From Paraspadella gotoi (Eukaryota > Animalia > Chaetognatha), in NCBI GenBank assembly GCA_051294375.1, contig CM119269.1, positions 18,240,410-18,304,409 on the forward strand: a DNA stretch of 64,000 nt, written 5' to 3'. The translations under genes and the position numbers were made by a program. The notes below the pieces were generated by a model. The model made no database searches. It was not told where the DNA came from and saw nothing but the letters and a program-made list of their open reading frames with translations. This document shows, in pieces, positions 1-54,463 of this stretch (the first letter of the stretch is position 1; each line of letters begins with the position of its first letter).

Positions 1-81
1 TACGATTTTATACGTATACTACATGAAACAAAGATCTGATCCCAACGCCCATCCAATGCAAACACAGCCAACTGAAGCGGC

Positions 82-125
<44 letters not shown>

Positions 126-1337
126 CGTGACGGCGACGACGACGACGACGAATAGACAAAAACTCTCGACGATCGATTTAAAAATAACTCGACTTCGTTC
201 CTCTTCTTTCTCTCTTCCTTTTCGATCTCTATTTTTGCCAAGTCTCCAGACTCGAGACTTAATCTAAGTATTAACGTTTTCACACTTCTCCAACTTTTAA
301 AAATATACTCTAAATATAAGAAACTTATATTATGTTGTAAAATTTTCACATTACTCGTGTAAAAATGGAAAACGTCACGAAACTCATCTTTTTTTCCACA
401 CTAGTTCTCACTCTTATCGCAGGGAGAGCGGACAATGCTCATTCATCCTCGCTTTCCACTCTCTCTCTCTCTCACTCCCGTTTTTATCTATGACCATTTC
501 TCGTAAACCGCAATAAACTCTTTCCTCTCCGTTAGACCCCCTACTGGTCCAACGACTCGTCGAGTTGCTTCCTAATTTTCATCCACTCCCTCCATCATCG
601 GCCACAATTACCCCATCACTCCCCAACACACGGTCCCCGATGCCCTGTCCCTCTCCCCCAGCGGGGTCCTCTCCCCCTCCCGACCCCTCGGCCATTCGTT
701 CCGGTTTTTCTGGGAACTATTTTATGGAAGGTCAGGCCGCGAGCAGACAGCGGCGCCACCCTTTGGCCAAAACAATCAATTGTTTATGACGCCGTCAACT
801 TTTCACGACGGGCTCCGAGGGCGGAAAGGGGATGGCAGCGGCGACGTGGGCGGTCGCGGCGGCGGCTGCGGCGGAGGATATGGCTTCGTTGGCGACGATG
901 GTGGAAGTGGCGAAGATGATGGCAGAAGAGGTGGCACTGACGGCGCGGGAGGGAATGGCAAAAGTTTATGAATAAGAATGAATATTAATTAGATAAGTAT
1001 ATGGAATAAGAAAACGATGGCGAAGCATATGATGTCGACGAAAGTAAATCAATGGTGGCATTGGTGTAAGTATCAGCGGTGGCATTAGTGGCACTATCGG
1101 CGATATTTCGATAAAAGTTGCGCCACCCGAGGCGCAGGCCGAGGCGACGTGCCAAGAGAGCGAAGAAGAATCCTATGGATTTTCGCGTGAATTGTGAGGA
1201 ATTCTAACCGCAAAAACCCCTCTTTCTCTCCTCTCTCTCTCTTCTCTCTCTCTCTCTTCTCTCTCTCTCTCTTCTCTCTCTCTCCTCTCTCTTCTCTCTC
1301 TTCTTTCTCCCTACTCTCTCTCTCTCCTCTCTCTCTC

Positions 1338-1393
<56 letters not shown>

Positions 1394-1699
1394 CTCTTTT
1401 TTTTGTCGTTTTTTCTTTTCTGTTTTTCTGTTCTATTGCTACTCTTAATAGCTTAAAAAATATTTTTTTTCATTATTTTAAGAAATATAATTGAAAAAAA
1501 GTTTCAAACAAAATCGGGGTAAAATTTCATTCTCGTTCAAAAATTAAAAAGACTGACGACAATTTACTAAATGACGACAGGATATTTTTCTTTGATGAAA
1601 TAGCAATCCAAAAATGCTTTTTTACGAAACGTAGTCGAATTTACATGTGACCATTGTAAGTAGTAATAGAGTAAAGTCTCTTCGGTCTTTAATTAAGAC

Positions 1700-4600
1700 T
1701 TAATTCCAACACAGAACGCCCTCAATTCCAACTCCTGGTGAAAAAAGAAAAAGCCAAACAGTCGTAGTGACATTTTGCCCGTGAAAATCTTTGGCCGTGA
1801 GTCGTGACAATGTCCGCTCAATCACGAACATCACCGCCGGGACAACATGTTGCCTATTCTGAGAGTATTTCCCACGAAATCTGAAACGAGGCGTTTTTTT
1901 TTTTAATCCAACGAAATATTTTGAAAAAAAGAAGCTTCATTCTTACTTCCACATTATCAAGCATTGCCATTCCTCAGTCTCACCTCCGTCTGTTCCCTCT
2001 TTAACCCCAAGCTCTTCTCCACAGCCTCGATGATTCTCGTGCCTCCAGGGTGCACCCCCCACAGATCAACGTCCGAAGCTTTCAAATCGTGTCGTCCCCA
2101 GAAAACTCTCCACGTAGGGGCGGGCGTTGCTTTCGAGATATTGGCTTAGAATCTTAGCGGATGAGGGAAGTTTTATGAATAATAAAAAAATGAGTCAATT
2201 TCCTCACATTGAATTGTCCTGACCTTGGACAGAGTGCAAGTGATTCGCGTTCGATGTGATGCCCAAAATGATTCCATCTTCTGTTCCTTCGGAAAGCATC
2301 GAGTGATGATCGATCACGCGAACCAAAATTTTGTTTTTCTTTATGAAAGTAAATAAAAATTCAGTAATGTCAAATTTTAAATTTAATGTATGTACAGGAA
2401 AATGTACAATGTGCAGTACAATTGTACATGTTAAAATCCTAAGCCGAAGATACATAGGAAGTTTAATTATGAGAAGTAAAACAGGGGCAAATATAGCGAT
2501 GTTCAAGAGTGTATTTTACAGGAAAATATTGACAGTCAAGTAAGCAATAAGAGAGAGAAGCAGACGATCCACCGACACAGAGCAGCGAGGAGAGTCCGGC
2601 GAAGCCGAGAGTGCCCCCGCACCCGAGTGAGGAGAGCAGAGATGAGATTGAGAGAGAGCAGACGAGACGACACACACCAAAGAGAGACGAGAGACGACAG
2701 GATCCAGAACACCCGAGAGGAGACACGAGAGACCGACCGACGAGAGACGCGACGGAGAGGGGAGGAGCCGCACCCGAGAGGACGAGGACGATCCCGGCGA
2801 AGACGAGCGGGCGAGAATGAACAACGACGACCGAGAGGAACGGACGAGAACGCAGAGGACGCTGACGTAGAGGCAGTGCCGGACGGAGCGGCCGGCGGTC
2901 GCCGAAGCGGCCACTCGCGCGGAGGCACAACGCCTGAGAGCCGCGGGCGGGCATGGGAGGTAAGAGGCGAGCCCCTGACGGGCCGTGGCCACACGAGCCA
3001 ACTAGGGCAGGACTGATTCGGAGAACGAAGACGAGAGGGAGAAACAAGAGAGGAGACGAAATATGAGAGAGACGAGAAGAACGAGGGAAAAATAAATGCC
3101 GGACGCAGGACGATCGAGCAAAGCCAAACAGCGACGCGCCGCTGAGAGGGAGCTGGGAGAGAAAAAAAAAACATAAAGAAACGAAGACGAGCAATAGTAA
3201 GGAGAGAGGAAAGAGAGAAAGTGAGCGAGAGGGGAGAGAGGTCGCGTGGGCCGCAGATCACACCCTAGCAGACGGAGACATGCAAGTGGAGCCGAATGTC
3301 CATCCTCCACGAGGGAAGTACCGACACGTGACAGGATCCGCTCTGAGTGGTACGTTGGCTCATCCTCGACACACACTGGGGCTGTCCCTCCGGCCTGCAT
3401 CACATCAGCCCCACGGCAAACGCGGGCGCGCGCTTTTCTCCCGTACATCTCTACAAGGACGCCTTGTCGGACTGTACGAGCACGCGTGAGCAATTCAGAC
3501 CCCCCCGCGACCCGACCGCGAGGAGAGCGGACCCTAGAGTGCGAGTAGAGAACCAGGATTAAGACGGACGAGAAATGGAGAAGATACCTATTGAGAGAGA
3601 GACGAGAGAGAGAGAGAGAGAGTAGAAGGATGAGAGAGAGAGAGAGAAAGCAGAGAGAGAGAGAGAGAAAGAAGAGAGCAGAAGAGAGAGAGAGAGAAAG
3701 AGATTGCATATCAATATATCTTCGGCCAAAAGGCGGTCAGGTCTGTGGATCGGCGAGAGTGTTTTCCACAGTCCACCAATTAGTTTCATCACTCCTACGC
3801 ACCCCCAATCTCTCGTCGTCTCCCGAAGACGGCGGCAGCACATCCATCGCTGAAAATGGCGTGCAATATGGCGTCATTGACGTTGTCCTCGAAGGTCGTG
3901 TGGACGGAACTTATCTCCACGCAGACCAATACCGACACCTCTGAATGTGGACGGGGAAGAGCGGATGATAATGATCATTATTAAAGTTCGTGGATTGTGT
4001 TACATACCTCGGGAAAGTTTGGGACGACTTTTGACCCAATTACTGGCGACGCAAAATCCGTTCATGGCCGCCGCGCAGCCCATAAACCCCACGAGGACTC
4101 TCTCTGCAAGTGTAAAGGTAAGAAAAACCTCTCATCTATGTTTAGTAAATTTTTTACTTTCTCGTCCATTGATGTCAATTGCCTGTCGTCCGACGTTAGA
4201 GATAAAGCGTTTATCAAATATACATCCAGTCCGGGTCCAAGAAATCCAGTGCTTGATACTACTACCAGTTGCCCGATCTGAAATTTAAAATTAAAATTTA
4301 CGAAGAGTAGTTTTAGGCTAACTTTGAGCTATTCAAAAAAAAGGTTTAAAATCCAAAGATCCCACCATAGCATAAATGAATAATGTATGGGTTGTAATAG
4401 TTTAAAAATTATCAAATTATCATTTGATTAGTGATAAAACTAATAAACCACCAAAGCCTGTCCAAAGTCAGTGGCAAAAGAGCTTAGTTATTAAATGAAT
4501 GGATAATTTTTCTATTGGTTGTACCAATCTCATGTTAAACAACTAGAGGTATTTATATACATATAGATATAAATAATAAAAAAAGTGTCAGGATACTCTT

Positions 4601-5719
4601 TATATTATGAAATGTGTTATGATATTTCAAAGAATGTTTCAACTGTATGAAAAGACCACTCCCTTAAGTATTAGGTCGGGGAATACTATATATTTCAATA
4701 TATATATATATATCTATATTTCATATATATATTGATATTCATATATATATTTCATATTTTATATACACCTCATCTGTTGTAACTCCGGCTGTTTGTATTG
4801 CTCTTCTCACGACGTCGAGGACGAGAGATGAAGCGACTTCCTCAAACTTGGAAATTCTCTCTTCGACCGGAATTTTGAAGGAGCCGTCCTGTAGGATGCA
4901 ACTGGTGTTTAGTTTAGTTTAATCAATGTTTTAAGTCATTTTTAAATTTTTTAAACCTCGGGAAAAAATTCCGCTGAAGGGTGGTGCCCATTGAGGATTG
5001 AATTTGGTCGAGATCTTGAGACTGTAAAAAAGTTCAAAAACTACAATTTTTTTAAAAAATTTAAAAAAATAACTTCTTTTATGATTTAGAAGTGATTTGG
5101 AAGTGAGGGAATGATTCCCTTTGTTTCAGATTTCGTCGTTTCTCATTCTCTCTCTTCTCTCTGTTTTCTTTTCTTTTTGTTTCTCTTCGCTTCTCTTCTC
5201 TTTCATATATCTAATTTTTTCTCTTCATATATCTCATTTCTTTTCTTCTCTTCTCTTCTCTTCTCTTCTCTTCTCTTCTCTTCTCTTCTCTTCTCTTCTC
5301 TTCTCTTCTCTTTCATATATCTCATTTTTTCTACCAGATCATTTTTGTAAATTGTTGGCCTTGAAAAATGATCAATAAAATTTCCCCGATTCCCATAACT
5401 AAAGACTGTTTAGTAATTATTATTTTTCATAATTGATGCTTAGCAAAAATTTTTAACGTTACCGTTTATTGCAATCTCAGACCATCAAAGATTACCACTT
5501 GATTACTTGATTACCTTCATCGATCTTTGGTGTCACCGCTAAATGCCGTTTAAGGATTTTCGTGTTTTCGTAAATTTTTTGAAGACGAGGCTTTACTTTA
5601 ACGACGTCGACGGCGGACTGCGCTACCAATAGCGCTTCGTTCTGCGTTAGGGAGTTGGCGGGATTGCCCGACGCCAGCGCAAGGATATAGGAAGAATCGG
5701 CTGTCGTCTCACCGTTCAT
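1700..5719 (-). CDS. Type III polyketide synthase (chalcone/stilbene synthase superfamily; brown-algal PKS1 / Mycobacterium PKS18-like), 9 exons, ~393 aa, with several 1-bp indels in the 3' exons
   Basis: Manually spliced exons: 5515-5719 (MNGETTADSSYILALASGNP..TQNEALLVA..IYENTKILKRHLAV), 4957-5021 (..EFFPE), 4769-4888 (DGSFKIPVEERISKF..AGVTTDE), ~4183-4277 (IGQLVVVSSTGFLGPGLD), 4008-4103 (RVLVGFMGCAAAMNGF, catalytic Cys), 3803-3940 (VCVEISSVHTTFEDNVNDAILHAIFSDGCAAA), 2224-2338 (SEGTEDGIILGITSNxITCTLSK), 1984-2152 (VDLWGVHPGGTRIIEAVEKSLGL, catalytic His), 1700-1880 (SWEILSExGNMLxPAVMFVIE...LFSPGVGIEGVLCWN*, catalytic Asn). Introns are GT-AG except an ambiguous, possibly GC, donor after exon 4. 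Confidence 0.93.
4625..4691 (+). repeat. ~67-bp dispersed repeat fragment in PKS intron 3, second copy at 25304-25370 in an ALDH intron
   Basis: TTTCAAAGAATGTTTCAACTGTATGAAAAGACCACTCCCTTAAGTATTAGGTCGGGGAATACTATAT versus TTTCAAAGAATGTTTCTATTATATGAAAATACCACTCCCTTCAGTATTAGATCGGGGAAGACTATAT. Confidence 0.8.
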
Positions 5720-6094
5720 TTTTTAGCGGCTCAAGTTTTTCTTGGTTAATATTCAGACGAGAAAAGTTAGCTTTATTTTTTAATTAACTTTTTTTAGTAG
5801 TTAAGAAAGCAACGAAAAGAAAAGTTTTTCAATTTAGCAACGGCAGGGATCAACCGAGGCGCGGAATTTCAGTGGTCGCCTCGTATTACCACTAGTACCA
5901 TCTAGTTTTGCCAACATTTTTTATTTGTCACGGCTTTAATATCCAGAGTAAACAAATAAATGAAAAAAAAACTGATTAAAAATATTATTTCGTCTTTAAA
6001 AAAATCGTCTCGATACCAATAGTCTTGATATATATATCAGGAGACAAAATGATATTTGTCTTAGGATTAAGACTTTAAGCCCTGTCGGTTGCTC

Positions 6095-6380
6095 TTTTTA
6101 GTTTTGCCGCGAGTACTCGCGGAGCATCTCTATAAGTCACTTTTCGGACGGTCGGTCCGTCTGTCCTTCGGTATGTCTGTCCGTGGGTCTGTCCCACTTA
6201 CATTAAAAATGGTTATAACTTGCCTATTTTTTTTGCTCATTTGTTAAAAATCAAATCTAAGCGACTACTGGCGCCGCCTTTTGTTTTTAAAAATGTTTTA
6301 TAAACTATAAGGAATAAATGATATGATAAGTAAAAAGAAAAGTAATGCGCTGCAACACCTTGGAATAACCGTTCCTTGTT
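6095..6380. mobile_element. Non-autonomous interspersed element, DINE-1/Helentron-associated (HINE)-like, copy 1
   Basis: TTTTAG..CTCTATAAGTCACTTTT, a GTCC/GTCG/GTCT microsatellite core, CCCACTTA..TTAAAAAT and a TGGAATAACCGTTC(C)TTGTT end are all shared with 28871-29117. T-rich flanks; 16-bp perfect palindrome CCGCGAGTACTCGCGG at 6107-6122. The family label is inferred from this architecture. Confidence 0.6.
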
Positions 6381-7114
6381 TTTATTAAGAGAACCATCAA
6401 TAATATTTTAAAAATTGTTATTTTTTCGTTCACATTTTGGTTAAAATTGTTCCTCTTTTTTTTTCTTTTTCGGATATCTAATAACTGGGATAAACAATGA
6501 AGTAAAAGCAGTTATTTCTCGTTTTAAATATTTTTTTTTAAATCCCAACCCGCTTATCCGAGGGCTCTCAAGCTCTTTATCATATTTTTCGTCACGCAAA
6601 AACAATGCATCCTTGTTTAATGTTTATATTTTTTTGGGGGGGGATAAAACCTCAGAATTTGAAATTAAAGTTGAATAGACTTTGATATTTGCCGTGAAAA
6701 TATGAAAGTTAAAAAAAAAACTTACGTAATCTATAAAAAAAATTATTTTTAGAGGATTACGAAAGGACAATGGTTATGAAAAGTGAAGAAAGAATAACGA
6801 TATTAGATAGGGATGAGCAGTATTCGACGAATTTTTTATTAGAGTAGAGACGAAAGAAAAAACAGTAGTGACATTATCCTTTCGGGTTGAGAAAATCATA
6901 GATACGGCCGGTTTGTTTGACTATCTATCTATCTTTGATTTTTTATATTATTACTATTCTTATTATTAATATTATTATTTTTACTATTATGATTATGTTA
7001 TATTTATCCTAGATTTTTATATTTCTAATCTTTCTCGTCTTCATAACAAAGTCCATTACGAAAGGCGCTCATTTCGTCTCGACCCGACGCATTATCTTTC
7101 TGGTCGTTCTCTCC

Positions 7115-10100
7115 TCATTCTCCGTCTCCTCCCCTTATATCTATAACGAAATGATTTCCTGCTGTTTCTTCTTCTTCTTCCTCGTATCTTCTCCTTTCAT
7201 ATTTAAATAATTGGTTATCAGAGTTGTTAATAACTCGCTCGTCGGCGCTCTGCTTGTCCGTTTCTACTCGGCAATCGGCGCTGTTATTGTCAAGAAAGAA
7301 TCCCCATTTTTTCGCAAAGTTTTTGTCGTAGAAACGAAGAAAGTTTTTCGCTCTGACGTGAGTCATGATGTCCGCACGAACGGAGACGCCAAGTTTTCCG
7401 TCTTCGGCGATATCGGCGTCGATCTCGATTTCGGCACCGGAGATTTCGGCGCCGGTATCCGGTTCCGTCTCGTCGTCGGGAGTGGCGCCGCTTTTGACGT
7501 CGGCCAAAAAGTCGGCGTCGAGAAAGATGAGTTTGAGGGCGCGGATTTGGCCTTCGATCGCCAGATGGTGCGCCTAGTTTTGAAGTGATCAAGGGGTTTA
7601 GAAACCTTGTAATAAAAAAAAATTTGGTAACTATGTATTTAGTAATTTTTTGGAAGTAGGCAGTTAGTAGGCTAAAGATAAATAAAGAATATGAAATAGA
7701 GCAAGTTGAGTCGAGTAAAGCCAAGAAAAACCTGGGGCGAAAGGCTATGCAGAGAATAAATTATAATTTGTTTTGTTTTCACCGGACCTGGTTAAATTCG
7801 AAAATACGCCAATCGTCTCGCAGATATTTTTTCGACACGAGGGCGACAAAGCAGCCAGAGTTTTGGATGGCTTCGCTAAGGGCTTCCGCCTTGCACCGGC
7901 CGAGCAGTTCGCAGCCGCCGCGGTCGTGGTCGTCGCGGACGAACCCTTGGAGGCCGAGTCGGTCGACGGCTTCCAAAAGAGACTCTAATTTCGGACGTTC
8001 GTCCTCGTAGTCTGCGTCGGTGTAAGAGAAGTAAACGTCGTAGGCGAAATTTATTTCCTGGAAACGTTTGTCTTTATTCTTGATCAAACGATACGCTTTC
8101 GGAAAATTGCTCCAAATTGCAATCGCCAGCGTTTCTCTGTAAAAGCTGGCTGTCACGATGACTAAGGATATCGCAGCAATGACCAGGCCGATGCCGACGA
8201 TCAGAAATGTTAACTTTCCCACGACTCGGTTGCCATAGTCACCGTCGTTGCATATGTCGGCGTATTCAATTTCGGTCATGTTGCGCAGAACATAAACTGC
8301 GATGTCGTTATTATAGTCCAAACCGTGACCGTTGCAAGCGACGCCGTCAATGTCTTCGACGTGGAACCGCCAACCGTCGTCCCGCACAAAATCCCACGGA
8401 TTCGGACTTTTGCATGAACACTTGAAAGGATTTCCTTTCAGCCTCATTTTTAATTTGGTGCCAAGTCCGTCTAAAGACTTTGGCGGAAGAGAAATTTGAT
8501 TGAAAGTCAGGTCGATGAGTTTCAAACGCGTTGGTCGAATCCTGTTGACTGCATCGAGAATGATAGACGCATCGGTGATCATATTCGAACTGAGATCGAG
8601 AGTCTCGCTCACTTTGAGCAATATGTCCAAATGAGTCTCATTCACCGAACTGACGTCGTTGGCCGAGAGGTCGAAATCGTAGACGAACCCATCCTCCAAC
8701 TGACTTGGCAGCGAAGATCGTTCGCGGCATTTTGCGCGTACTTTGTGAGGCGCAATTCTTGTGCACTCGCAATCGGCGTCACAAGTTGTTCTTCGACACC
8801 CAAACGCCTCGGCCTCGGTCTCCATGAGGTTTGACTTCACAGAGGCATTGGACGCCGCCGACGTTTTGCAGTCAAAGTTTCGAAAAAGCGGAGATCCGTA
8901 GAACCGTTGACATCGCATGACCCGACCTTCGAGAGATTCATCGGGAATTGTCTCGAGAGAATTGAGGAAAAAGGCAGAGTCTTGCATGGCGCATCCTTGG
9001 CAGACGAGGTCGCCGCGTTGGGTGTCCAAGTTCTTGATCAATATGACGATTCCGTGAGAGTGGTACCAGGAGACGAATTCCATCAGCTTTCGTAGATTAA
9101 ATGAGGAAAGATGATTGTAATGGACGACTGAGAAATTGGAGAATATTTTAATAGAAAAATAGAAAAATACAAAATAGAAAAGTTATTCGATTTTATGAAA
9201 AGTCATAAGGGGGAGGAAGGCAATGGGAGTATTTATAAAAATATTTCGACTTCATTTTTTAAGTAATCGTTAACGAGGATAAAGAAAATACTGGAGAAAA
9301 AGAGAGAGAGGGAAAAAGATATGTATCTTTTCAGAACCGTAAATGACCAAAAATTCTAAAATTGGGGCAAAACAGAGGCTTGAAATCCAGTCTTTCATAA
9401 TTTTGATCATTAGTCACAATTAGGGTTGGGTGACCCAGTTCTTTAGTCATTTTTTGTTTTGAATGAAAATCTCTAAAAGTGTTTTCACTCGCACCGCTTT
9501 CTTCATTATTAAATTACTCTTATTTAATACTCCCGGTGCATGTGATGACGTTTTTAAAAAGAATTGAGAAAAGTTTTTAAAATATTTTATCGAATACAAT
9601 TATTTCGGTTATTTTTAATTTAGGTACGTAATTTGTCTCAAGAAACGTAAAAAAAGAGACTCCTAACATATTATTATTTAGTAATAGGGATTGAGGACAT
9701 TGCCTGACCATTGTGACCAAGTTCAGGGGCAAGATTGAATGATTGAATGAAAAATGTTTGTATTGGTGTACCAATTTTATAATACTTACCGATTGAGTAT
9801 GCGGTCATCTTATTACATTGCACTTTTGTTTCATTGCCTTTCTTGTCCATCGTTGGGAAGTAAATGTCATTGATAAGATTATAACCGACGATAATGGTCG
9901 TATCAACGATGTAGTTAGAAATCCGTAATGGCCACAAATTAAATATCGTCAGTTGATTCTCTTGCAAATAAAGTTTTTGTATCGATGGCAACACCTCCAA
10001 GATATTTTCCACAGTCTTCATTCCATTTTCGTTCAAATAAAGGTAAGCCAATCGAGGTAAGTTTCTAAATATGTTCTTTTTCACGGATCGAATTTTGTTG

Positions 10101-12142
10101 TTTTCCAAATCGAGCAGCTCCAAATTCGGCAGATGGTCGAAGGCGTTTGCCTCAATGGTGTGAATCTGATTGTGGCCGAGCAAAACCTCGGAGAGCCACG
10201 ACAAATTTCTAAAGACGCCAGATGTAAGGATCGTCAGGTCGTTTCCGGTCAGATCCATCCCTTCTAGGTTCGCAGGAAATACTCCGCTCTTCAAGCTTTT
10301 TATTAAGTTATTACTTAAAAATACAAACTTTATTGTAGGCGACGGTTTGAAAGTTTCCCGATTTAACCGAGGGAGTTTGCAGCCTATGCAGCTGAGAGTC
10401 ACCATCGTTTCAGAGTAAATAGCTATCTTGGAGACGTCGGTGTATTTCGCCTCAAGGGAGTCCACTTCTATACGACCTTCTAATGAGCCAAGTGGGTTTT
10501 CATCGAGGACCAACCTTTTCAACTTCGAGTTGGAAAGAGACGAAAAGTTTGTGAGTTGATTCTTGTCCATAAACAGAGTAGAGCCTGAGAAAGAAGTCAA
10601 GAGAATTTATTTGAGTCATGATAAATAGTGCGTGTGGAATTTTACGATATAAAAATCATTTCCACCTGGTGGGAGTTTGGTTAAAATTGAATCGTCGTCC
10701 ACGACCTCGAGACCAGCGTCTCTAATAGTGACTTCCATAGTTTTGTTAAATCTCGCGTCCTGCCACAATCTCGGGAGGAGGCCGTCCTTGAATCCAATTC
10801 CTTTGAACGAAACTTGCCCAACTACTTTGATCGTGTGCAGGCTAAAAGATTAAGCAAAATACATTTATATGTATTTATAGACTATCATAATTATATATGT
10901 ATAATAACATCGGAGAAGTATCAAGCCACCGAAAACAAATCGGAACGGAAGCTCGGGCGATCTCCGCGGAAATGAAATCGACGAATCCTGATTGGAACCG
11001 GAATCGACCAATCAGCTTGCAGAATCATCGGAACTGTAATTTTTACCCTTAGTATAAATAGACCTAGCTTGTTCTACTTCTAGTTTCAGTCTCACCGTCA
11101 CCTTTATTCTCAGAATAAAATCCCATCTTGATTATCATAATTTGTGTGGAAACTAATAAAGAACATCAGTCAGGATATGATGCGATTATTTTGGTTTTGC
11201 TAACCTCCCCAAGTTGGCCGTCAAGACGATATCTTGCGCTACTTTTAAATTCGCTCCATTTATAGTCAAACTCGTCAACCAAGGAGCATCCAATATCCAA
11301 GGCTCCGTCAGCTGCACCCAACACTCTGACCCTCTGCCGTGCGAATTGATATCCAGGAATGAGAGACGCTTCGTCGAATTGGCCGATAGAGGGACGATCG
11401 TAGAGTTACACTCCGTTTTTATGGCAACTCCGACGAAAAACATCTAGTCGGAATTATGTGCGTTTTATTTCGAATTCAACATGGTTGATTAGCTACAGAC
11501 AATAACATCAAGCAACTAGTTATAAACAAAAAAAAACAGTAATAATTGTTATGAGTTAGTGATAGAACCGTTCAATATAAGCAGTCCCTGAGCTTCGGAT
11601 CCGGCTGTAACACCGTGTTACAGGCGGGTTAGGCGACCCGTCCCTCTTAACTGCAAGGCGACCACCGAGCTAGAATCCCGGACCTTTGGGTTGGGAGGCG
11701 AAAGACTTGCCTCCTGCACCAAAGGGCCCTGATGATCGGTTGGAGGATTTTAGTCCACCATAACGGGATAATTAATTAAATAGTAGAGAAATGAATTATT
11801 CAGAGGACAGTGTTTTTCGACAAATAGATCTTGGTAATTAAATTTTTTCAGCAATGTTAGATAACACTACTAACAGTGCATATAACTGTATTTAGTGGCT
11901 GTTGAGTGTTGAGAATACAGCTAACACTACCTATATCCGGACACATTCCCGATCCAACTTCCCTCGCACTCACTTACGACTCCGCGGTTGATCAACACCG
12001 CCTCGAGTTCAAACAACTCGTCGCCGCCGGAAAAGCAGTGGAGGACGAAGCTGCAGCGGACGTGGCTGACGTAGCAGGAGGCGCGGACTGCTGAGGCGAG
12101 GAAAAGGAGTAGGAGGACGAGGCGTACAAAAATCAGCGCCAT
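7115..12142 (-). CDS. Toll-like receptor, multiple-cysteine-cluster (Toll/protostome) type: signal peptide, LRRs, internal LRRCT/LRRNT, LRRCT, TM and TIR, ~1057 aa
   Basis: Phase-consistent exons 11978-12142 (MALIFVRLVLLLLFLASAVRA signal peptide), 11205-11443, 10666-10841, 9790-10584 (LxxLxLxxN repeats, e.g. LPNLELLDLENNKI), 7788-9127 (CDADCEC LRRNT, GNPFKCSC LRRCT, TM LTFLIVGIGLVIAAISLVIV, TIR box1 YDVYFSY) and 7115-7573 (end of TIR plus tail). Total 3174 nt with no frameshift. Confidence 0.92.
11590..11728 (-). mobile_element. Possible degenerate tRNA-derived SINE head in TLR intron 1
   Basis: The minus strand reads GGCCCTTTGGTGCAGGAGGCAAGTCTTTCGCCTCCCAACCCAAAGGTCCGGGATTCTAGCTCGGTGGTCGCC, with tRNA-like spacing of a degenerate A box and B box. 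It is a GC-rich island in an AT-rich intron. Confidence 0.35.
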
Positions 12143-12797
12143 CCTACATTTACGGTTTTAAAATGGAGAAACGAAAAAAAAAACCTTTTTGTTTTCAATT
12201 CGGTTGTTCTTGGTTTTTAGAGTCAGCGAGGAGTCATCGAATCTTTTCACCTTTGAACCCGGATCTTTCGTTATCAAAAAAAATAAGATTTAAAAATTAA
12301 CAAATAAAACCGATCAAGTTTAGACCGAAACAATCAACGGCTCGCATTCTAAGCCGCCGCAACGTCGCCTCTCGAAAACAAAGACGAGGCTTTTAGCGCC
12401 AGTCTCCGTTCTCCGCTCCGCCGCCAAAGGTTTTGCAACGGCCCAAATGGAGAGAGAGGAATTGGGGAAGCAAAAAGAAAGAAAAACAATAATGAAAGAG
12501 TAAGATATTACATGAGTCCAAATCAGGAAGCAATATAGCTATTATTAAATGAATGGGAGCATAATTTCATAATTGGCTTAGAACCAATTTCATAATTATT
12601 GAATCAAACATTTTTTCTTTTTACACATCCATTCCAAAAATTTTAGAATTTTTAAGCATTCTTTCTCAATAAGAAAAGCTTTGAAGAATCCTCTGCAACA
12701 ATAATATGAATTGAGAAAAAAAACATTTAATCCTAGAGAGTGAATAAAGTCAGCGCAGCGAATTTTAATTCCGTTTTGTTTGTTTATTATACTTGAA

Positions 12798-14319
12798 TTA
12801 ATTCCGAACAACGGGTGATTTTGTTAACGACAATTGAACTTTGTCGGAAAAGATTTTGTTCATCGCCCACGTATGGTTATTTGTCATATTCGCAATATCA
12901 TACTTAGGGTGATATGTAGCAAAAAAAAAACTTGTTAAGAGACAAGAGAATTAAGGATTTTTTTAAATGATCATGATGCAAAGTATTTTAATAAAATATA
13001 GTAATAATATTAGTAGGTATATCACACATGTAAAAAACTCTCCAACCAGTCCGGAAAAAAAACATTAATTTAACGTGCCCTAGAATATCATAAAATGACA
13101 AATAAGCCCAAAGTAAACGTGATACTGATAATGGCTCGGCAAATTCGGACGTCACAGCGTGGACGGATGCGAGTAAGGCTTGAAAATTGGAGAAGACTCC
13201 TGGTGGGGAGACCTATGGTCGAAGCCAAACTTGGTAAAAATGGAAAAAATAAAAGGGGAAACCTCCGAATGGCGTGCGATTTTGTCATGTATGAGCTGAA
13301 GATCTGATCCTGTGGTACTAAAATAACGATTGAAGCGAAGAAATCTCTTGAAGAACCTGTTAGCTGGAAATTTAAATTCTGGCTATCCAAAATCCGATTT
13401 GAGTGTGAAAGTTTAGGATTTTTTAAGAATATTAGTAATAAAATGATAGCCGAGAGAGTACACCGGGAAAATTAACAATGAAAAAATTAATTTTCTGATA
13501 AATTATGATTTCACTGGTGATACGTTTTTTCATGATTGACCATATGAAAAATTTTCATACGCTCTACTGACGCCCCAAGAAGGAAGGCGATCAACATAAC
13601 CAAAAAGTGAGAGACATACTTCAGTTATTCTGGACAATTACTCGCAGCTAAAACGAGTATGTTGAGACTAAAGAAAACTAAATTATTAATTCAACCCCAA
13701 AAGCTTCAGCTGTTTTTTAGAGCGACAGACGGAGAGCAAAGCGGGAGGTCCCTCTAACACTTTGGTAACCAAAAAACTGCTATACAAAACTTTCTCTATC
13801 CTGGGCAAAGACTAAATTAAAGACAATCAGTAATAATTATCGTAATAAAATACGTCGCTCTCTCCGACCTAAATATTTACATCGTAATAGACACCTACAA
13901 CAGATCTTTATATTATTTGTTTTTGCTCTGTGTGTGTCATATTTCTGCAGCAGTTTCCAAGCCTGGGAAGCTGTACAAAAACCACACACAAAAACAGAAA
14001 CAGACTGTATATGTAAATATGCAATGTAAATATGTAATGAGGTAGGAACGATGCCGCCGTGTTTTATTTTGAATTGAAGTAGAGAGAGATAAGAGAAGAA
14101 CATTTAGGTTATTTTAAACATCATAAAGAGTGTTACGAGAAGAGAGCAACGATGCCGCTACTGATACTACCGGGCACAATGTCGCTAAAAACAAAAAACA
14201 GCCCGATTTGACTGAAGCCATTTTGCGGGTTTTTTGGAAATAATAAAATTTCAGTTTTCTCTTAGAGGATGTCAACCATACTGTATTTTAGCCTCGCGAG
14301 TAAGATTTGCGAGAATAAT
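12798..14319 (-). CDS. Putative multi-exon protein-coding gene of unknown function (5' end not resolved)
   Basis: Chain of 8 phase-compatible GT-AG exons: 14277-14319, 14137-14184, 13895-13970, 13696-13800, 13541-13629, 13263-13378, 13126-13212, 12798-12902 (TAA). Several introns are 50-94 nt, like those of the neighbouring genes. Gives ~220 aa ending ...HSEVSPPGVFSNFQALLASVHAVTSEFAEPLSYDIANMTNNHTWAMNKIFSDKVQLSLTKSPVVRN*. No family recognised; the splice sites were chosen by eye. Confidence 0.45.
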
Positions 14320-17300
14320 CTGGAAAAGTATGTAATCTACTTTTTGGGCTGATGTTTGCCAAATCGGTCACTTTGGTCAGGTAGAGCGCTAGTTGAAAAT
14401 TTTGTTCTCAATGGTCAATCCGATTGAAAAACGCGTTATCGATACACCAGTGGAATATTAATTATGCAAAGAAAAATTGAATATTTTGATTGTTCAATGT
14501 GTTCGTCCCATAGCCTTTTCGAGAGTAGTATTTATATACTTAAATATTCTTAAGATAAATCCTTTGTAATTTTTCAAAATGGATGTTGATAGGGCAGATT
14601 TAAAAATCCTCATCTACAAGTTAGAAAGCTGATATAAAACGAAAAAGAGAAGCAAAATAAGTTTAATAACGCATAATAAAGTTTTTTTTCTGGCAACACA
14701 AAAAAGAGAGAGAGAGACAGGATTGAACAGATGAGCCAAAACTAATAAAATGCCAAAGAGCCCAAACAAATGTGATGCGGTTTCCCCCTTTTTTTTCTTC
14801 CGAGTTTTTCATAGTTTTTTCCATGTCATGAAGTCGCTTGGACAGTTAGGCCCCCCGAGTTCTTCATTTAAGCCTTCTCCGGTCCACTTGCTGTGAGCGG
14901 GTCGAATTTCGAGCAGCTTCACGGCATGTTCAATTAAAGCTAAATTTAAAAAAGCGTATTTAACTGTGGCTTGCCGGTATTTGTCCTAGGTCTAGGGATA
15001 CATATTTTTAGGCCTATAAGTTTTTTCCTTTCGCACGACCTGGGCCACTACGCTGTGGGCAAGGATGAGTTTTCTTTTTTTAATGTTGGAGTGCTCTAAT
15101 AGTATATAATTCATATTTATAACTTATATAAGTTATTATATTTGTACCCGATGATCATTTTAGATTTGCAAAAGAAAAATCCTTAATACTCTGGTAAGCT
15201 TAACCAAAGTTTATTTGTATCTGTAATATTCGAAGAGCGTTATAAGAGTAATGAGGTATATGGCAATAAAAAAAAATAACCCGTCGGTGAAATTACAAAA
15301 TTATGCGCATGCTCAATTCTTGGAATAAATGATTATATTGATTAGATAGAGAACAAAAGTTGTGCTGCAACAAAAATTGCCGTGGGATCTTTTAGCACGG
15401 ATAACACTCATTATCGATAATTATATTTCAAGAAATTATATTAAAAATGAAAATGAACTCCTAATTAATTAGTTAATTAATAATTAAGGGTGATCGAACG
15501 CCATTGTGTTTTTGTTAGGTCTGAGGGTCTTCTTTTCGTTGACTGTCCACGACGAAAGCAACGGACGCAAGCCAAATAATGATCGAAGTCTTTGCATTTA
15601 TTGTTAATTTGGTGGAATAGATTAATGAAAAATATATATTTTAATTCAATTATTTTGGATTATTTGAATATAATGAATTACTTGGTGAATTAATTATAGT
15701 TTGGATCTATATTTCAATATTTTGATTGTATGATAATCATCTTTGTCATGTACTAATTTTTAATTTATAAATATATAATATATAAAAAGAGGCAATATAA
15801 TCATTTTATATTCAATGATGTTGAAACTATTGTTGTTGGTCTCTTCCATTTATTTAAACATCATCACGGGCGGGTACTTGATTGATCCATCGAAACCTAA
15901 TCCTAGCTTATATCACACACTTTGTTACGCCGATCATATAACAAGAAATTTTCTATCACTATCAAGGTATCTAATAATCTATTGAGTATAGAATTTGTGT
16001 CAGACCTCACGTTCAAAGCTTTAAGGCACAACCGGGGAACGCCACAGTATCAGTACAAGGCATAATCTAATAAGTATTTATAGTTAATTGCATATTTTAT
16101 CATAATTCGTATGTCCTTGCTGACTATCTGATTTAGTTAAGCTATACGACAAGATGTTGAGGGACTAGGGCCGGCGAAAGCCGACAGATATATATAGAAG
16201 CCGGAAGGATTTCTGTACTAAGCAGAAATCCGGATAAAAATATTTTGTTTTATTAGAATGAAGCCTCTTATCTTTCACGACTAGATGTTTAGCCTTATCG
16301 TGAACTTAACAACGTGTCGCTCCTCTAAGACCCGTTGCCACAATAGCGCGCTTGGCCGTTTCGGCGCGCCCGTTTCACTGTTGCCATCCTACGCGCGACT
16401 TCGTTTTCGGTGGCCGCCCCCCAACGATGCTCGCGAAATAAGACGCCCGCTTTTCTCTTTTTTTCTGGCTTTCCTTTCTACCTCTCCTCAATTCTCGAAT
16501 TACGAAACGGCCGAAATGTACCCGCGCACACGTCATAGTCCNNNNNNNNNNNNNNNNNNNNNNNNNACAGGTGCAGAGCGAATTGCGGTGTCATCATCGT
16601 CGCCGCTTGAATTTCGTCTGGAAAACATGAGTGGCGATTCGCGGGCGGTAATTGTATTTGTGAATGACGTTATTAGATCGAATGTTGTCTTCATTGTTCA
16701 ATGTTCATTGTTGTGTTCAATGTAGTTAAGAATTACCTGTGGCAGTCCTTAAAACAATGAGTCGCACAGCAGTTTTTAAAGGCGGTAATAACTGAACTGA
16801 ATATAAAAATGAAGCCGACTCAATTCAATCAGGATTGTTCCACAGATAACAAATAATTGACAATAATCGTAAAGGGGTGCTATTTAACCAATACTACCAT
16901 AATAAATAACATTTCATCATAAAATATAGCCAGTATTTATCGTAATCTTTGTCCGAGCGTAAGGCCGTAAGCTGAGAAATCAATCAATAAAAATAAAACG
17001 GAACGACGCCACCCTTTTTGCAAACAGTCCAAGTCAACTGACTGAATCCTTTTTAGTTTTTCTCGTTCTCACTGATTTTTTTCTTCATTTTTTTAACATT
17101 TTGTTTGCAATGACTTTTTTTTTCTTTTTCGCGGCAAAAGAAGAATTAGCACCTTTCCCAGTGACTCTTCCCGACTTTCCTGCCAACTTGGATTTTTTTA
17201 AATTTTTTACAACCGTTTAACTTTAAGGTTGAAACTTTTAGGGTTTTTTTTTTTCAGTTTCTTTTAAATTCTTACACGTTCAAAGAGTTTCTGTAAATAA

Positions 17301-48369: not shown

Positions 48370-52900
<4,531 letters not shown>

Positions 52901-52928
52901 CTCTCTCTCCTCTCTCTCTCTTCTCTCT

Positions 52929-52965
<37 letters not shown>

Positions 52966-54463
52966 TTCCCTTTAATAGTACGTAGTTCAGAGTTTAACAA
53001 AGAAAGAAAGAGCCAAAGAACAGAAAGAACTAACGACACACAACAAACAAAACAGGCGTAAGATAAGTGAACTTCGGCAACAGAAGAGGAGAAACCAACG
53101 ATTACACGGCTGAGCCGATTAGGAAAAAAATGGTAAACGGCTGAGCCGATTGGGAGAGAAAAAAAATCATAAAATATAGGTGAATAATTGACATCGTTGG
53201 GTAATAAAATATATCAAAAAGGTTATATAATGGAGACTTCGAGAAATTTAAAAGCACCCGCTTATATGGCGAAACCCCGTAATAGAGGGAATCGCAATTA
53301 TGTGTAGCATGTTGATAAAATTTCGTCTTAGCCGACTCGGTGAGAGATAGCGCTTTAAACAAAAACTCCTGCGATCAAGTTGAATCAAATTTTTGGTTTT
53401 TGTCCCCCGAAAAAAAATTTATTTTATCTCTTTATTCGAATAATAATAAGTGAAAGAGAGAAATAAAGGTGGAAGAAGGTTATGAAAAGCTANNNNNNNN
53501 NNNNNNNNNNNNNNNNNNNNNNNNNNNNNNNNNNNNNNNNNNNNNNNNNNNNNNNNNNNNNNNNNNNNNNNNNNNNNNNNNNNNNNNNNNNNNNNNNNNN
53601 NNNNNNNNNNNNNNNNNNNNNNNNNNNNNNNNNNNNNNNNNNNNNNNNNNNNNNNNNNNNNNNNNNNNNNNNNNNNNNNNNNNNNNNNNNNNNNNNNNNN
53701 NNNNAAAGGAAAAGTAAAAAGGAAGAGTCCTTCTTTGAATTTCTTTTCATCGTCGAGCGATTTTTCTCATTAATCACGAAACACCTTTTTGCGCCGCATT
53801 TCTTATTTCTTTGTAGTCTCTCTCTCNNNNNNNNNNNNNNNNNNNNNNNNNNNNNNNNNNNNNNNNNNNNNNNNNNNNNNNNNNNNNNNNNNNNNNNNNN
53901 NNNNNNNNNNNNNNNNNNNNNNNNNNNNNNNNNNNNNNNNNNNNNNNNNNNNNNNNNNNNNNNNNNNNNNNNNNNNNNNNNNNNNNNNNNNNNNNNTCTT
54001 TCTATATTTATCTCCGTCAATTTGATGCAAATGCAAATCGATTTTGCTTCCGAAATCGATATTCATGAGGCAACAAAAAATCGTTGTTGTTATTGACGAC
54101 TGACGAGAACTTAATCCGTTAGTTTTTTTTAAATCGAACATAAAAAGTAGTTTTAATTATTTCCAGTTCACCTGTTACTTGGCAACGGATTGACTCATTC
54201 GATTAAAAGATTCCCTTTCTAACTTCTCTTCAGTCCACTGAATTTCTGCTCTCGTTTTGAACAACGGCCAAATGTGGGGTTTTTTTTGTGTGTGTGTGTT
54301 TAAAGTTTGCAGGTTCTTTTGTTTTTGCTGTCTAATATACTACAGTAGAGATAAATTTACACATCGCGGTAAGGAAATTACCTTAAACGAAAAAACTAAG
54401 AAAAAAGGAGATTTTAAAAAAAATACTTTGTGTTTTTTTCCTTTCTGTTTCGTTGTGATTTGA

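Follow-up and report, generated by a model that had tools for sequence, protein, structure and literature searches.

We report that a 64,000-nt stretch from the chaetognath Paraspadella gotoi (assembly GCA_051294375.1, contig CM119269.1, positions 18,240,410 to 18,304,409 of the forward strand; hereafter the window) carries a type III polyketide synthase (PKS) gene of nine exons and eight introns, which runs on the minus strand from 5719 to 1689. Taken as a whole, the evidence makes us confident that this PKS is an intact, spliced nuclear gene. It likely reached the animal by an old horizontal transfer, with an alga-like microbial eukaryote of the PKS1 clade as donor, and its predicted products are alkyl-pyrones or acyl-phloroglucinols. 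A gene for a Toll-like receptor (TLR) lies upstream of it on the same strand. Public sequencing runs that contain the region number nine, all from a single organism and drawn from six samples and three studies; the window was compared with runs X1, X5, and X6 (DNA) and X9 (RNA-type).

Structure and transcription of the PKS gene

X9, which belongs to another study, yielded a single 1432-nt contig spliced across all nine PKS exons (5794-1520). Seven of the nine are listed as pieces of that contig, the remaining two fit by length, and two of the joints are listed as CT..AC. The mRNA modelled from the corrected sequence has exactly the length of the X9 contig (1432 nt) and contains an open frame of 395 aa with the Cys-His-Asn triad. 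Translation starts at the ATG at 5719, preceded by a 75-nt leader, and an in-frame stop located two codons 5' of this ATG is part of the transcript. The introns measure, in order, 493, 68, 491, 79, 67, 1464, 71, and 103 nt. Seven have GT-AG borders, the exception being intron 4 (4104-4182, 79 nt), a GC-AG intron with which the transcript joint agrees. Introns are spliced in vivo and one transcript spans the nine exons, as in a domesticated, horizontally acquired animal gene. The parts of the gene are, in order of transcription:

5515..5794, minus strand: PKS exon 1, with the 75-nt leader and the ATG at 5719; letters 1-280 of the RNA-type contig; Chal_sti_synt_N match at E 0.021
4957..5021, minus strand: PKS exon 2, 65 nt; assigned by length only, to letters 281-345 of the spliced contig
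4769..4888, minus strand: PKS exon 3, placed by contig alignment and gene model
4183..4277, minus strand: PKS exon 4, with one extra letter in the window; followed by the 79-nt GC-AG intron
4008..4103, minus strand: PKS exon 5, with the catalytic Cys171 (FMGC)
3803..3940, minus strand: PKS exon 6, with the acyl-tunnel residues
2339..3802, minus strand: PKS intron 6, its middle garbled and without DNA contig cover; the transcript joins across it
2224..2338, minus strand: PKS exon 7, with two extra and two wrong letters in the window
1984..2152, minus strand: PKS exon 8, with the catalytic His311 (HPGG); Chal_sti_synt_C match at E 1.1e-4
1520..1880, minus strand: PKS exon 9, with the catalytic Asn344, the stop at 1689-1691 and a 3' untranslated region to about 1520

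A Pfam scan of single exons returned weak chalcone-synthase matches, under the curated cut-offs, in three of the eight scanned. Membership in both Chal_sti_synt families (N and C) follows instead from the 395-aa model, which aligns over 380 aa (E 1e-137) to a protein passing both cut-offs. The triad and the gatekeeper (Cys171, His311, Asn344, and Phe223) align to brown-algal residues 194, 331, 364, and 243, and the tunnel positions 224, 227, and 228 are occupied by Ser, His, and Thr. The protein starts ~10 residues before the conserved core and is devoid of an N-terminal signal peptide or anchor.

As assembled, the gene shows frameshifts and stops in exons 4, 7, 8, and 9, which also led the original prediction to end it at 1700, whereas the true stop maps to 1689-1691. 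However, six exon indels are corrected identically in X1 and X9 (12 of the 29 indel rows being displayed), two more are corrected in X1 with X9 consistent by joint letters and length, and two substitutions with respect to the window are common to both runs. The window frameshifts are assembly errors, because DNA and RNA-type contigs lack them. That the disrupted frame reflects a decaying pseudogene is therefore scarcely credible, since both runs share the frame-opening corrections and the triad is intact. X1 contigs leave 5 of 30 bins in intron 6 without cover (2626-3066 and 3361-3654), a hole that alone proves nothing. Some features of the data set do weigh against so firm a statement: the evidence consists of assembled contigs rather than reads, X1 may be the source sample of the assembly itself, X9 (study P3) was taken as RNA by guess and from its splicing, and two single letters of exon 9 were deduced from lengths and homology, not displayed. 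With these points considered, we regard it as virtually certain that the PKS is intact and transcribed.

Residence in the host genome and the junction with TLR

Besides the PKS transcript, X9 contains a spliced TLR transcript in which the last TLR intron has been removed. The PKS is found in X1, X5, and X6, where it occurs as DNA at host depth, and in the RNA-type X9, that is, in four samples from three studies. Median contig depth of PKS relative to TLR was 1.01 (X1), 0.86 (X5), and 0.83 (X6), covering three samples from two studies; contig depth is a coarse measure, and the X5 and X6 values derive from one and two PKS contigs, respectively. These three DNA samples differ ~eightfold in depth, with PKS tracking TLR throughout. 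Pairs of allele-like contigs were evident in PKS intron 6 (37 + 32 at 3716-3818) and intron 1 (29 + 64 at 5002-5119).

Repeats further connect the PKS to its surroundings. The features concerned, together with the neighbouring genes, are:

4444..4533, no strand assigned: high-copy repeat in PKS intron 3, an inverted piece matching aldehyde dehydrogenase (ALDH) intron positions 25153-25179
4607..4691, plus strand: high-copy repeat in PKS intron 3, with a copy at 25288-25370
5239..5312, no strand assigned: (TCTTC)n microsatellite in PKS intron 1
6123..6381, plus strand: high-copy repeat in the PKS-TLR spacer, with a copy at 28881-29117; unbridged by the listed contigs
7115..12142, minus strand: animal TLR gene of six exons, 1057 aa, with leucine-rich repeats (LRR), a transmembrane segment and a TIR domain
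23828..27645, plus strand: cytosolic ALDH1-like aldehyde dehydrogenase gene of animal type, 5' end not modelled

A repeat common to PKS intron 3 and an ALDH intron had been proposed from the letters of the window, as had an element of the spacer recurring near 28871. Both proved to be real and very high-copy. For the intron-3 repeat, 4607-4691 and 25288-25370 share 85% identity over 85 nt and score 93 bits, where the best of 100 shuffles reached 33; for the spacer element, 6124-6247 and 28881-28997 share 80% over 125 nt and score 113 bits, as opposed to 35 for shuffles. A second piece of the latter, 6333-6381, matches 29070-29117. In every run compared, both repeats fall in bins 10^3-10^4 times deeper than the single-copy flanks, a summed contig depth that is a rough sign of high copy and not a copy number. 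Intron 3 also holds a second, deeper repeat (4444-4533), missed in the original prediction. The ALDH intron stretch 25153-25370 appears to be one element of ~220 bp, and PKS intron 3 (4444-4691) has two oppositely oriented pieces of it; loose ends and opposite-strand contig joints agree with an inverted two-piece element there.

Other arguments that had been raised for host residence fared unevenly. CT-rich microsatellites like those of the rest of the scaffold had been described in the PKS introns, which holds for the GA/CT run of intron 6, similar to 59 runs of the window, but not for the (TCTTC)n tract of intron 1, the sole run of its kind in the window. Likewise, the short introns are genuine (68, 79, 67, 71, and 103 nt) but coexist with long ones (493, 491, and 1464 nt), and the supposed match in size to neighbouring genes is contradicted by the counts: introns of 103 nt or less make up five of eight in PKS versus 1 of 12 in the neighbours (Fisher p 0.018), where TLR introns measure 534, 363, 81, 662, and 214 nt and ALDH introns about 317, 239, 153, 277, 146, 133, and 1087 nt. 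The view that the gene has been resident long enough to accumulate repeats is sound as regards the repeats and weak as dating, because high-copy elements can insert quickly; the eight unshared introns and the ~50% divergence from the nearest relatives argue better for age. G+C content at third codon positions was 0.54 in PKS, 0.57 in TLR, and 0.71 in ALDH, and PKS codon use correlated with that of the two host genes with a rho of 0.45. Both measures are host-like without being discriminating, and the codon-use likeness is unspecific, as 3 of 13 unrelated relatives score at least 0.45. Collectively, the spliced transcript, the TLR-like depth, the allele-like contigs and the high-copy repeats bear out the conclusion that the PKS is a host gene and not a contaminant. 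Of the reasons originally given for integration, the repeats stood, intron style failed and the absence of N was weak. Host residence is, in our view, close to certain.

The junction with TLR is a separate matter. Both its boundaries, the PKS start at 5719 and the TLR stop at 7115 (7115-7117), were borne out, and the claim that no N gap separates them is correct (there is no N in 1-16541). Nonetheless, this does not prove continuity, because the assembly carries noisy N-free fill inside the PKS itself. Overlapping contigs lead from PKS exon 1 to 6122 (5431-5954 in X5 and 5848-6122 in X1), which is the edge of a high-copy host repeat, and an X1 contig of 3700 nt extends from 6636 through TLR. 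Three observations in between weigh against an assured linkage: among the contigs listed for the four runs compared, none crosses 6123-6356; the listed pieces merely abut at 6635/6636; and X5 and X6 give thin cover in bin 6485-6717. Since no listed contig crosses the spacer repeat, the PKS-TLR join is unproven; the PKS is tied to host repeats, which occur on both sides of the spacer, and its tie to TLR comes from the assembly alone.

A host-resident PKS misjoined beside TLR at this spacer repeat would be in keeping with the interruption of contigs at 6123-6356, seen in each of the four runs compared, and with the error-prone assembly. We deem it improbable, however, given that DNA contigs cover both flanks of the repeat at a single depth (76-92 in X1) and differ from them by 0-2 letters, and that the spacer is free of N and of garbled sequence. 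A gene of a co-sequenced alga, protist or symbiont, joined as a contig into the animal scaffold, would be in line with the unbridged join and with ochrophyte algae as closest named relatives, but this very improbable explanation is largely refuted by PKS depth following TLR across the three samples, by introns bearing repeats thousands-fold over single copy that also occur in an ALDH intron, by the transcript in a third study and by an identity of only about 50% to any algal protein.

Relatives, candidate donors and predicted chemistry

Searches with exon 6 retrieved 142 relatives, and the named ones among the 120 listed were all ochrophyte algae, the closest being pelagophytes, dictyochophytes, raphidophytes, and brown and yellow-green algae; exon 1 returned 56 candidates, none of which scored as a relative. 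Across the full PKS model, identity to the best full-length proteins of the PKS1 clade is 49-53%. By comparison, of 80 prokaryote loci the top two reached 40-41% and the others about 30%, all four giant-virus loci gave 39-41%, and the full-length rows among 146 further cluster representatives gave at most 45%. Sequence identity therefore points to a eukaryotic donor, without support from trees. In a quick rooted tree of 72 rows, the PKS branched off early within the PKS1 clade, on a long branch (SH-like approximate likelihood ratio test, SH-aLRT, 93). As a separate observation, a PKS1-like subclade (P0011, P0025, P0027, P0009, P0001, P0012, P0008, and P0062), supported at 95/91 in a more careful tree, has two motif residues in common with the PKS and holds its best matches.

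We also compared intron positions, which the original prediction had proposed as a pointer to a eukaryotic donor if shared with algae. None of the eight PKS introns coincided in place and phase with any of 10 algal positions, so this comparison gives no such pointer; the algal list is incomplete, being read from exon-only protein calls and six intron-bearing metagenome locus sets. Near misses of 1-2 nt, at codons 260 and about 214, were put down to chance, a 1-nt miss arising in 20% of random draws.

Several results temper the case for an algal-type donor, which the trees do not fix. In the careful tree, built on 41 of those 72 rows, the PKS sits on a long unresolved branch. Approximately unbiased (AU) tests did not reject a bacterial sister (p 0.25) or a grouping of the PKS with the eukaryote-like subclade (p 0.34), and were borderline for a grouping with brown and yellow-green algae (p 0.051). 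To these must be added the lack of shared introns. As a point against the overall reading, word-limited searches for an ortholog in related animals found none, the best match (61%) being a partial protein.

A host-resident gene derived instead from a bacterium (cyanobacterial or PKS18-like), or arriving through a giant virus, draws on the same bacterial grouping left standing by the AU test, on the absence of introns common to PKS and algae and on the missing N-terminal anchor. The viral route could further invoke giant-virus contigs on which an mRNA capping enzyme neighbours relatives devoid of introns, and the bacterial one the ctenophore gene discussed below, whose donor was called bacterial (PMC6005172; this and all papers below are cited from excerpts). 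Yet identity is ~10 points higher to the eukaryote clade despite the long branch, tunnel residues 224, 227, and 228 are those of that clade and differ from PKS18, where the corresponding positions are Cys205, Asn208, and Ala209, and the quick tree supports the clade at 93. We accordingly hold a bacterial or viral donor to be unlikely. Vertical inheritance from early eukaryotes with loss in nearly all other animals would fit the deep, long branch and the type III PKS of a ctenophore, but it is hardly tenable, as it needs very many losses, named animals are absent among the 120 relatives listed, and PKS1 itself is regarded as having passed from bacteria into stramenopiles (10.1101/2024.02.19.579948; PMC7284882).

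The donor was thus probably a eukaryotic member of the PKS1 clade. On the simplest reading, which we favour with comparable reserve, an unsampled microbial eukaryote long ago passed on an intron-poor gene that acquired introns once it was in the host; all eight PKS introns would then postdate the transfer. According to the excerpted literature, PKS1 was acquired from bacteria early in stramenopiles (10.1101/2024.02.19.579948), a bacterial origin of the algal clade also backed by PMC7284882, and many PKS1 members, not all, bear a signal anchor (10.1101/2024.02.19.579948). With respect to this stramenopile clade, the animal PKS has no N-terminal signal anchor, places its eight introns elsewhere, has two short loop insertions at intron sites and forms a long branch.

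The best-characterised relative is Ectocarpus PKS1, a phloroglucinol synthase (PDB 4B0N): along 380 aa, the animal PKS shares ~50% identity with a brown-algal member whose alignment to 4B0N has no gaps. Triad and tunnel residues are the same as in the brown-algal enzyme (4B0N numbering) at the positions listed for PKS18 in PMC6274091. The next-best solved structures were Mycobacterium PKS18 (1TED) and cyanobacterial type III PKSs, alike in fold family and long-acyl tunnel layout (PMC6274091). Prokaryote type III PKSs differ from the animal gene, which is nuclear and intron-bearing, by an identity of ~40% even at the best loci. Giant-virus type III PKS-like genes (loci L161-L164) belong to the same family at 39-41% identity, but are intronless and AT-rich, lie beside an mRNA capping enzyme and are farther from the animal PKS than algal proteins are. 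Contigs of giant-virus type, L161-L164 and also L135-L137, place the intronless PKS directly behind the capping enzyme gene, and a literature search for giant virus and type III polyketide synthase gave an algal genetics preprint only. A separate curiosity of the family is P0271, a 4818-aa protein in which 12 stretches match the type III PKS profile, consistent with many tandem PKS domains.

A soluble enzyme making pyrones or acyl-phloroglucinols is predicted because triad and tunnel residues are as in the algal enzyme and the anchor is missing; we lean towards this product class. The anchorless PKS would act as a soluble homodimer, with Cys171 loaded with a fatty acyl-CoA, or with malonyl- or acetyl-CoA. 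The starter would be extended two or three times with malonyl-CoA and then cyclised, as in Ectocarpus PKS1 and mycobacterial PKS18. According to the review PMC6274091, the Ectocarpus enzyme converts malonyl-CoA to phloroglucinol, and lauroyl- and palmitoyl-CoA to pyrones and acyl-phloroglucinols. A caution against so specific an assignment is that PKS1 products vary among algae, the Sargassum enzyme making a methyl-pyrone (10.1101/2024.02.19.579948). The product may serve most likely in chemical defence or surface protection, and we propose a defensive role tentatively.

Our literature search for animal type III PKS-like transfers, from which subscription journals were mostly absent, found one precedent, ML18354a of the ctenophore Mnemiopsis leidyi, described as a horizontally acquired chalcone/stilbene synthase-like gene with intron-bearing neighbours (PMC6005172). 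Compared by description and not by sequence, both are expressed type III PKS-like genes of an animal genome with spliceosomal introns, but ML18354a has one intron and a donor called bacterial, whereas the PKS has eight introns, a bilaterian-type neighbourhood and eukaryotic algae as best matches. The authors of that study noted a single other animal match, taken as contamination (PMC6005172). No bilaterian or algal-donor case turned up in this search, though the host's own genome paper may list the gene; the excerpted text of a marine-worm genome paper (PMC11521371) does not mention polyketide, chalcone or Toll.

Neighbouring features and significance

Both neighbouring genes are of animal type, which on their own mark the host as an animal, probably a bilaterian invertebrate. 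ALDH groups with four proteins at 72-76% identity inside the animal cytosolic ALDHs, although an atlas search made with an ALDH relative returned bacterial clusters only, and TLR is equally like mollusc, annelid and arthropod Toll clusters. In TLR intron 1, 11536-11740 is a very high-copy element (X1 bins about 5e5 deep) with a partial copy at 23995-24062; its minus strand has, by eye, a tRNA-like head suggesting a short interspersed element, with no match from ARAGORN or Rfam. TLR intron 2 contains a further repeat (10945-11133; X1 depth about 1e4) whose splice-like ends make it resemble an exon. At 7410, within the last exon, the X9 TLR transcript carries 12 extra nt that keep the frame and are lacking in the three DNA runs, likely an allele. 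A tRNA-Asn(GTT) gene lies at 27759-27834, directly behind ALDH, and an Rfam scan of 1-30000 found nothing beyond it. Near-duplicate or garbled inverted stretches were seen by eye beside 25-N gaps at 30110-31135, 28710-32040, and 50429-53250, and 7 of the 19 N runs of the window are 25 long. These stretches look like gap-filling artefacts, presumably linked to long-read gap fillers.

The locus illustrates how assembly noise can give a working gene the look of a pseudogene. Type III PKSs have been described from plants, algae, fungi and bacteria, with one ctenophore as animal precedent, and invertebrate phenolic and pyrone lipids are usually ascribed to diet or symbionts. With the host gene intact and transcribed, whether the animal makes such compounds itself can be tested directly on one 395-aa protein, predicted to be soluble. 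The eight introns, none of them at a shared position, would also be a clean example of introns gained by a gene once it had been transferred. It is possible, though short of probable, that a bilaterian took this PKS from a eukaryotic alga or protist, fitted it with eight new introns, lost the anchor and now makes phloroglucinol or pyrone phenolics of its own. If true, the enzyme that opens the seaweed phlorotannin pathway would have passed from another eukaryote into an animal.

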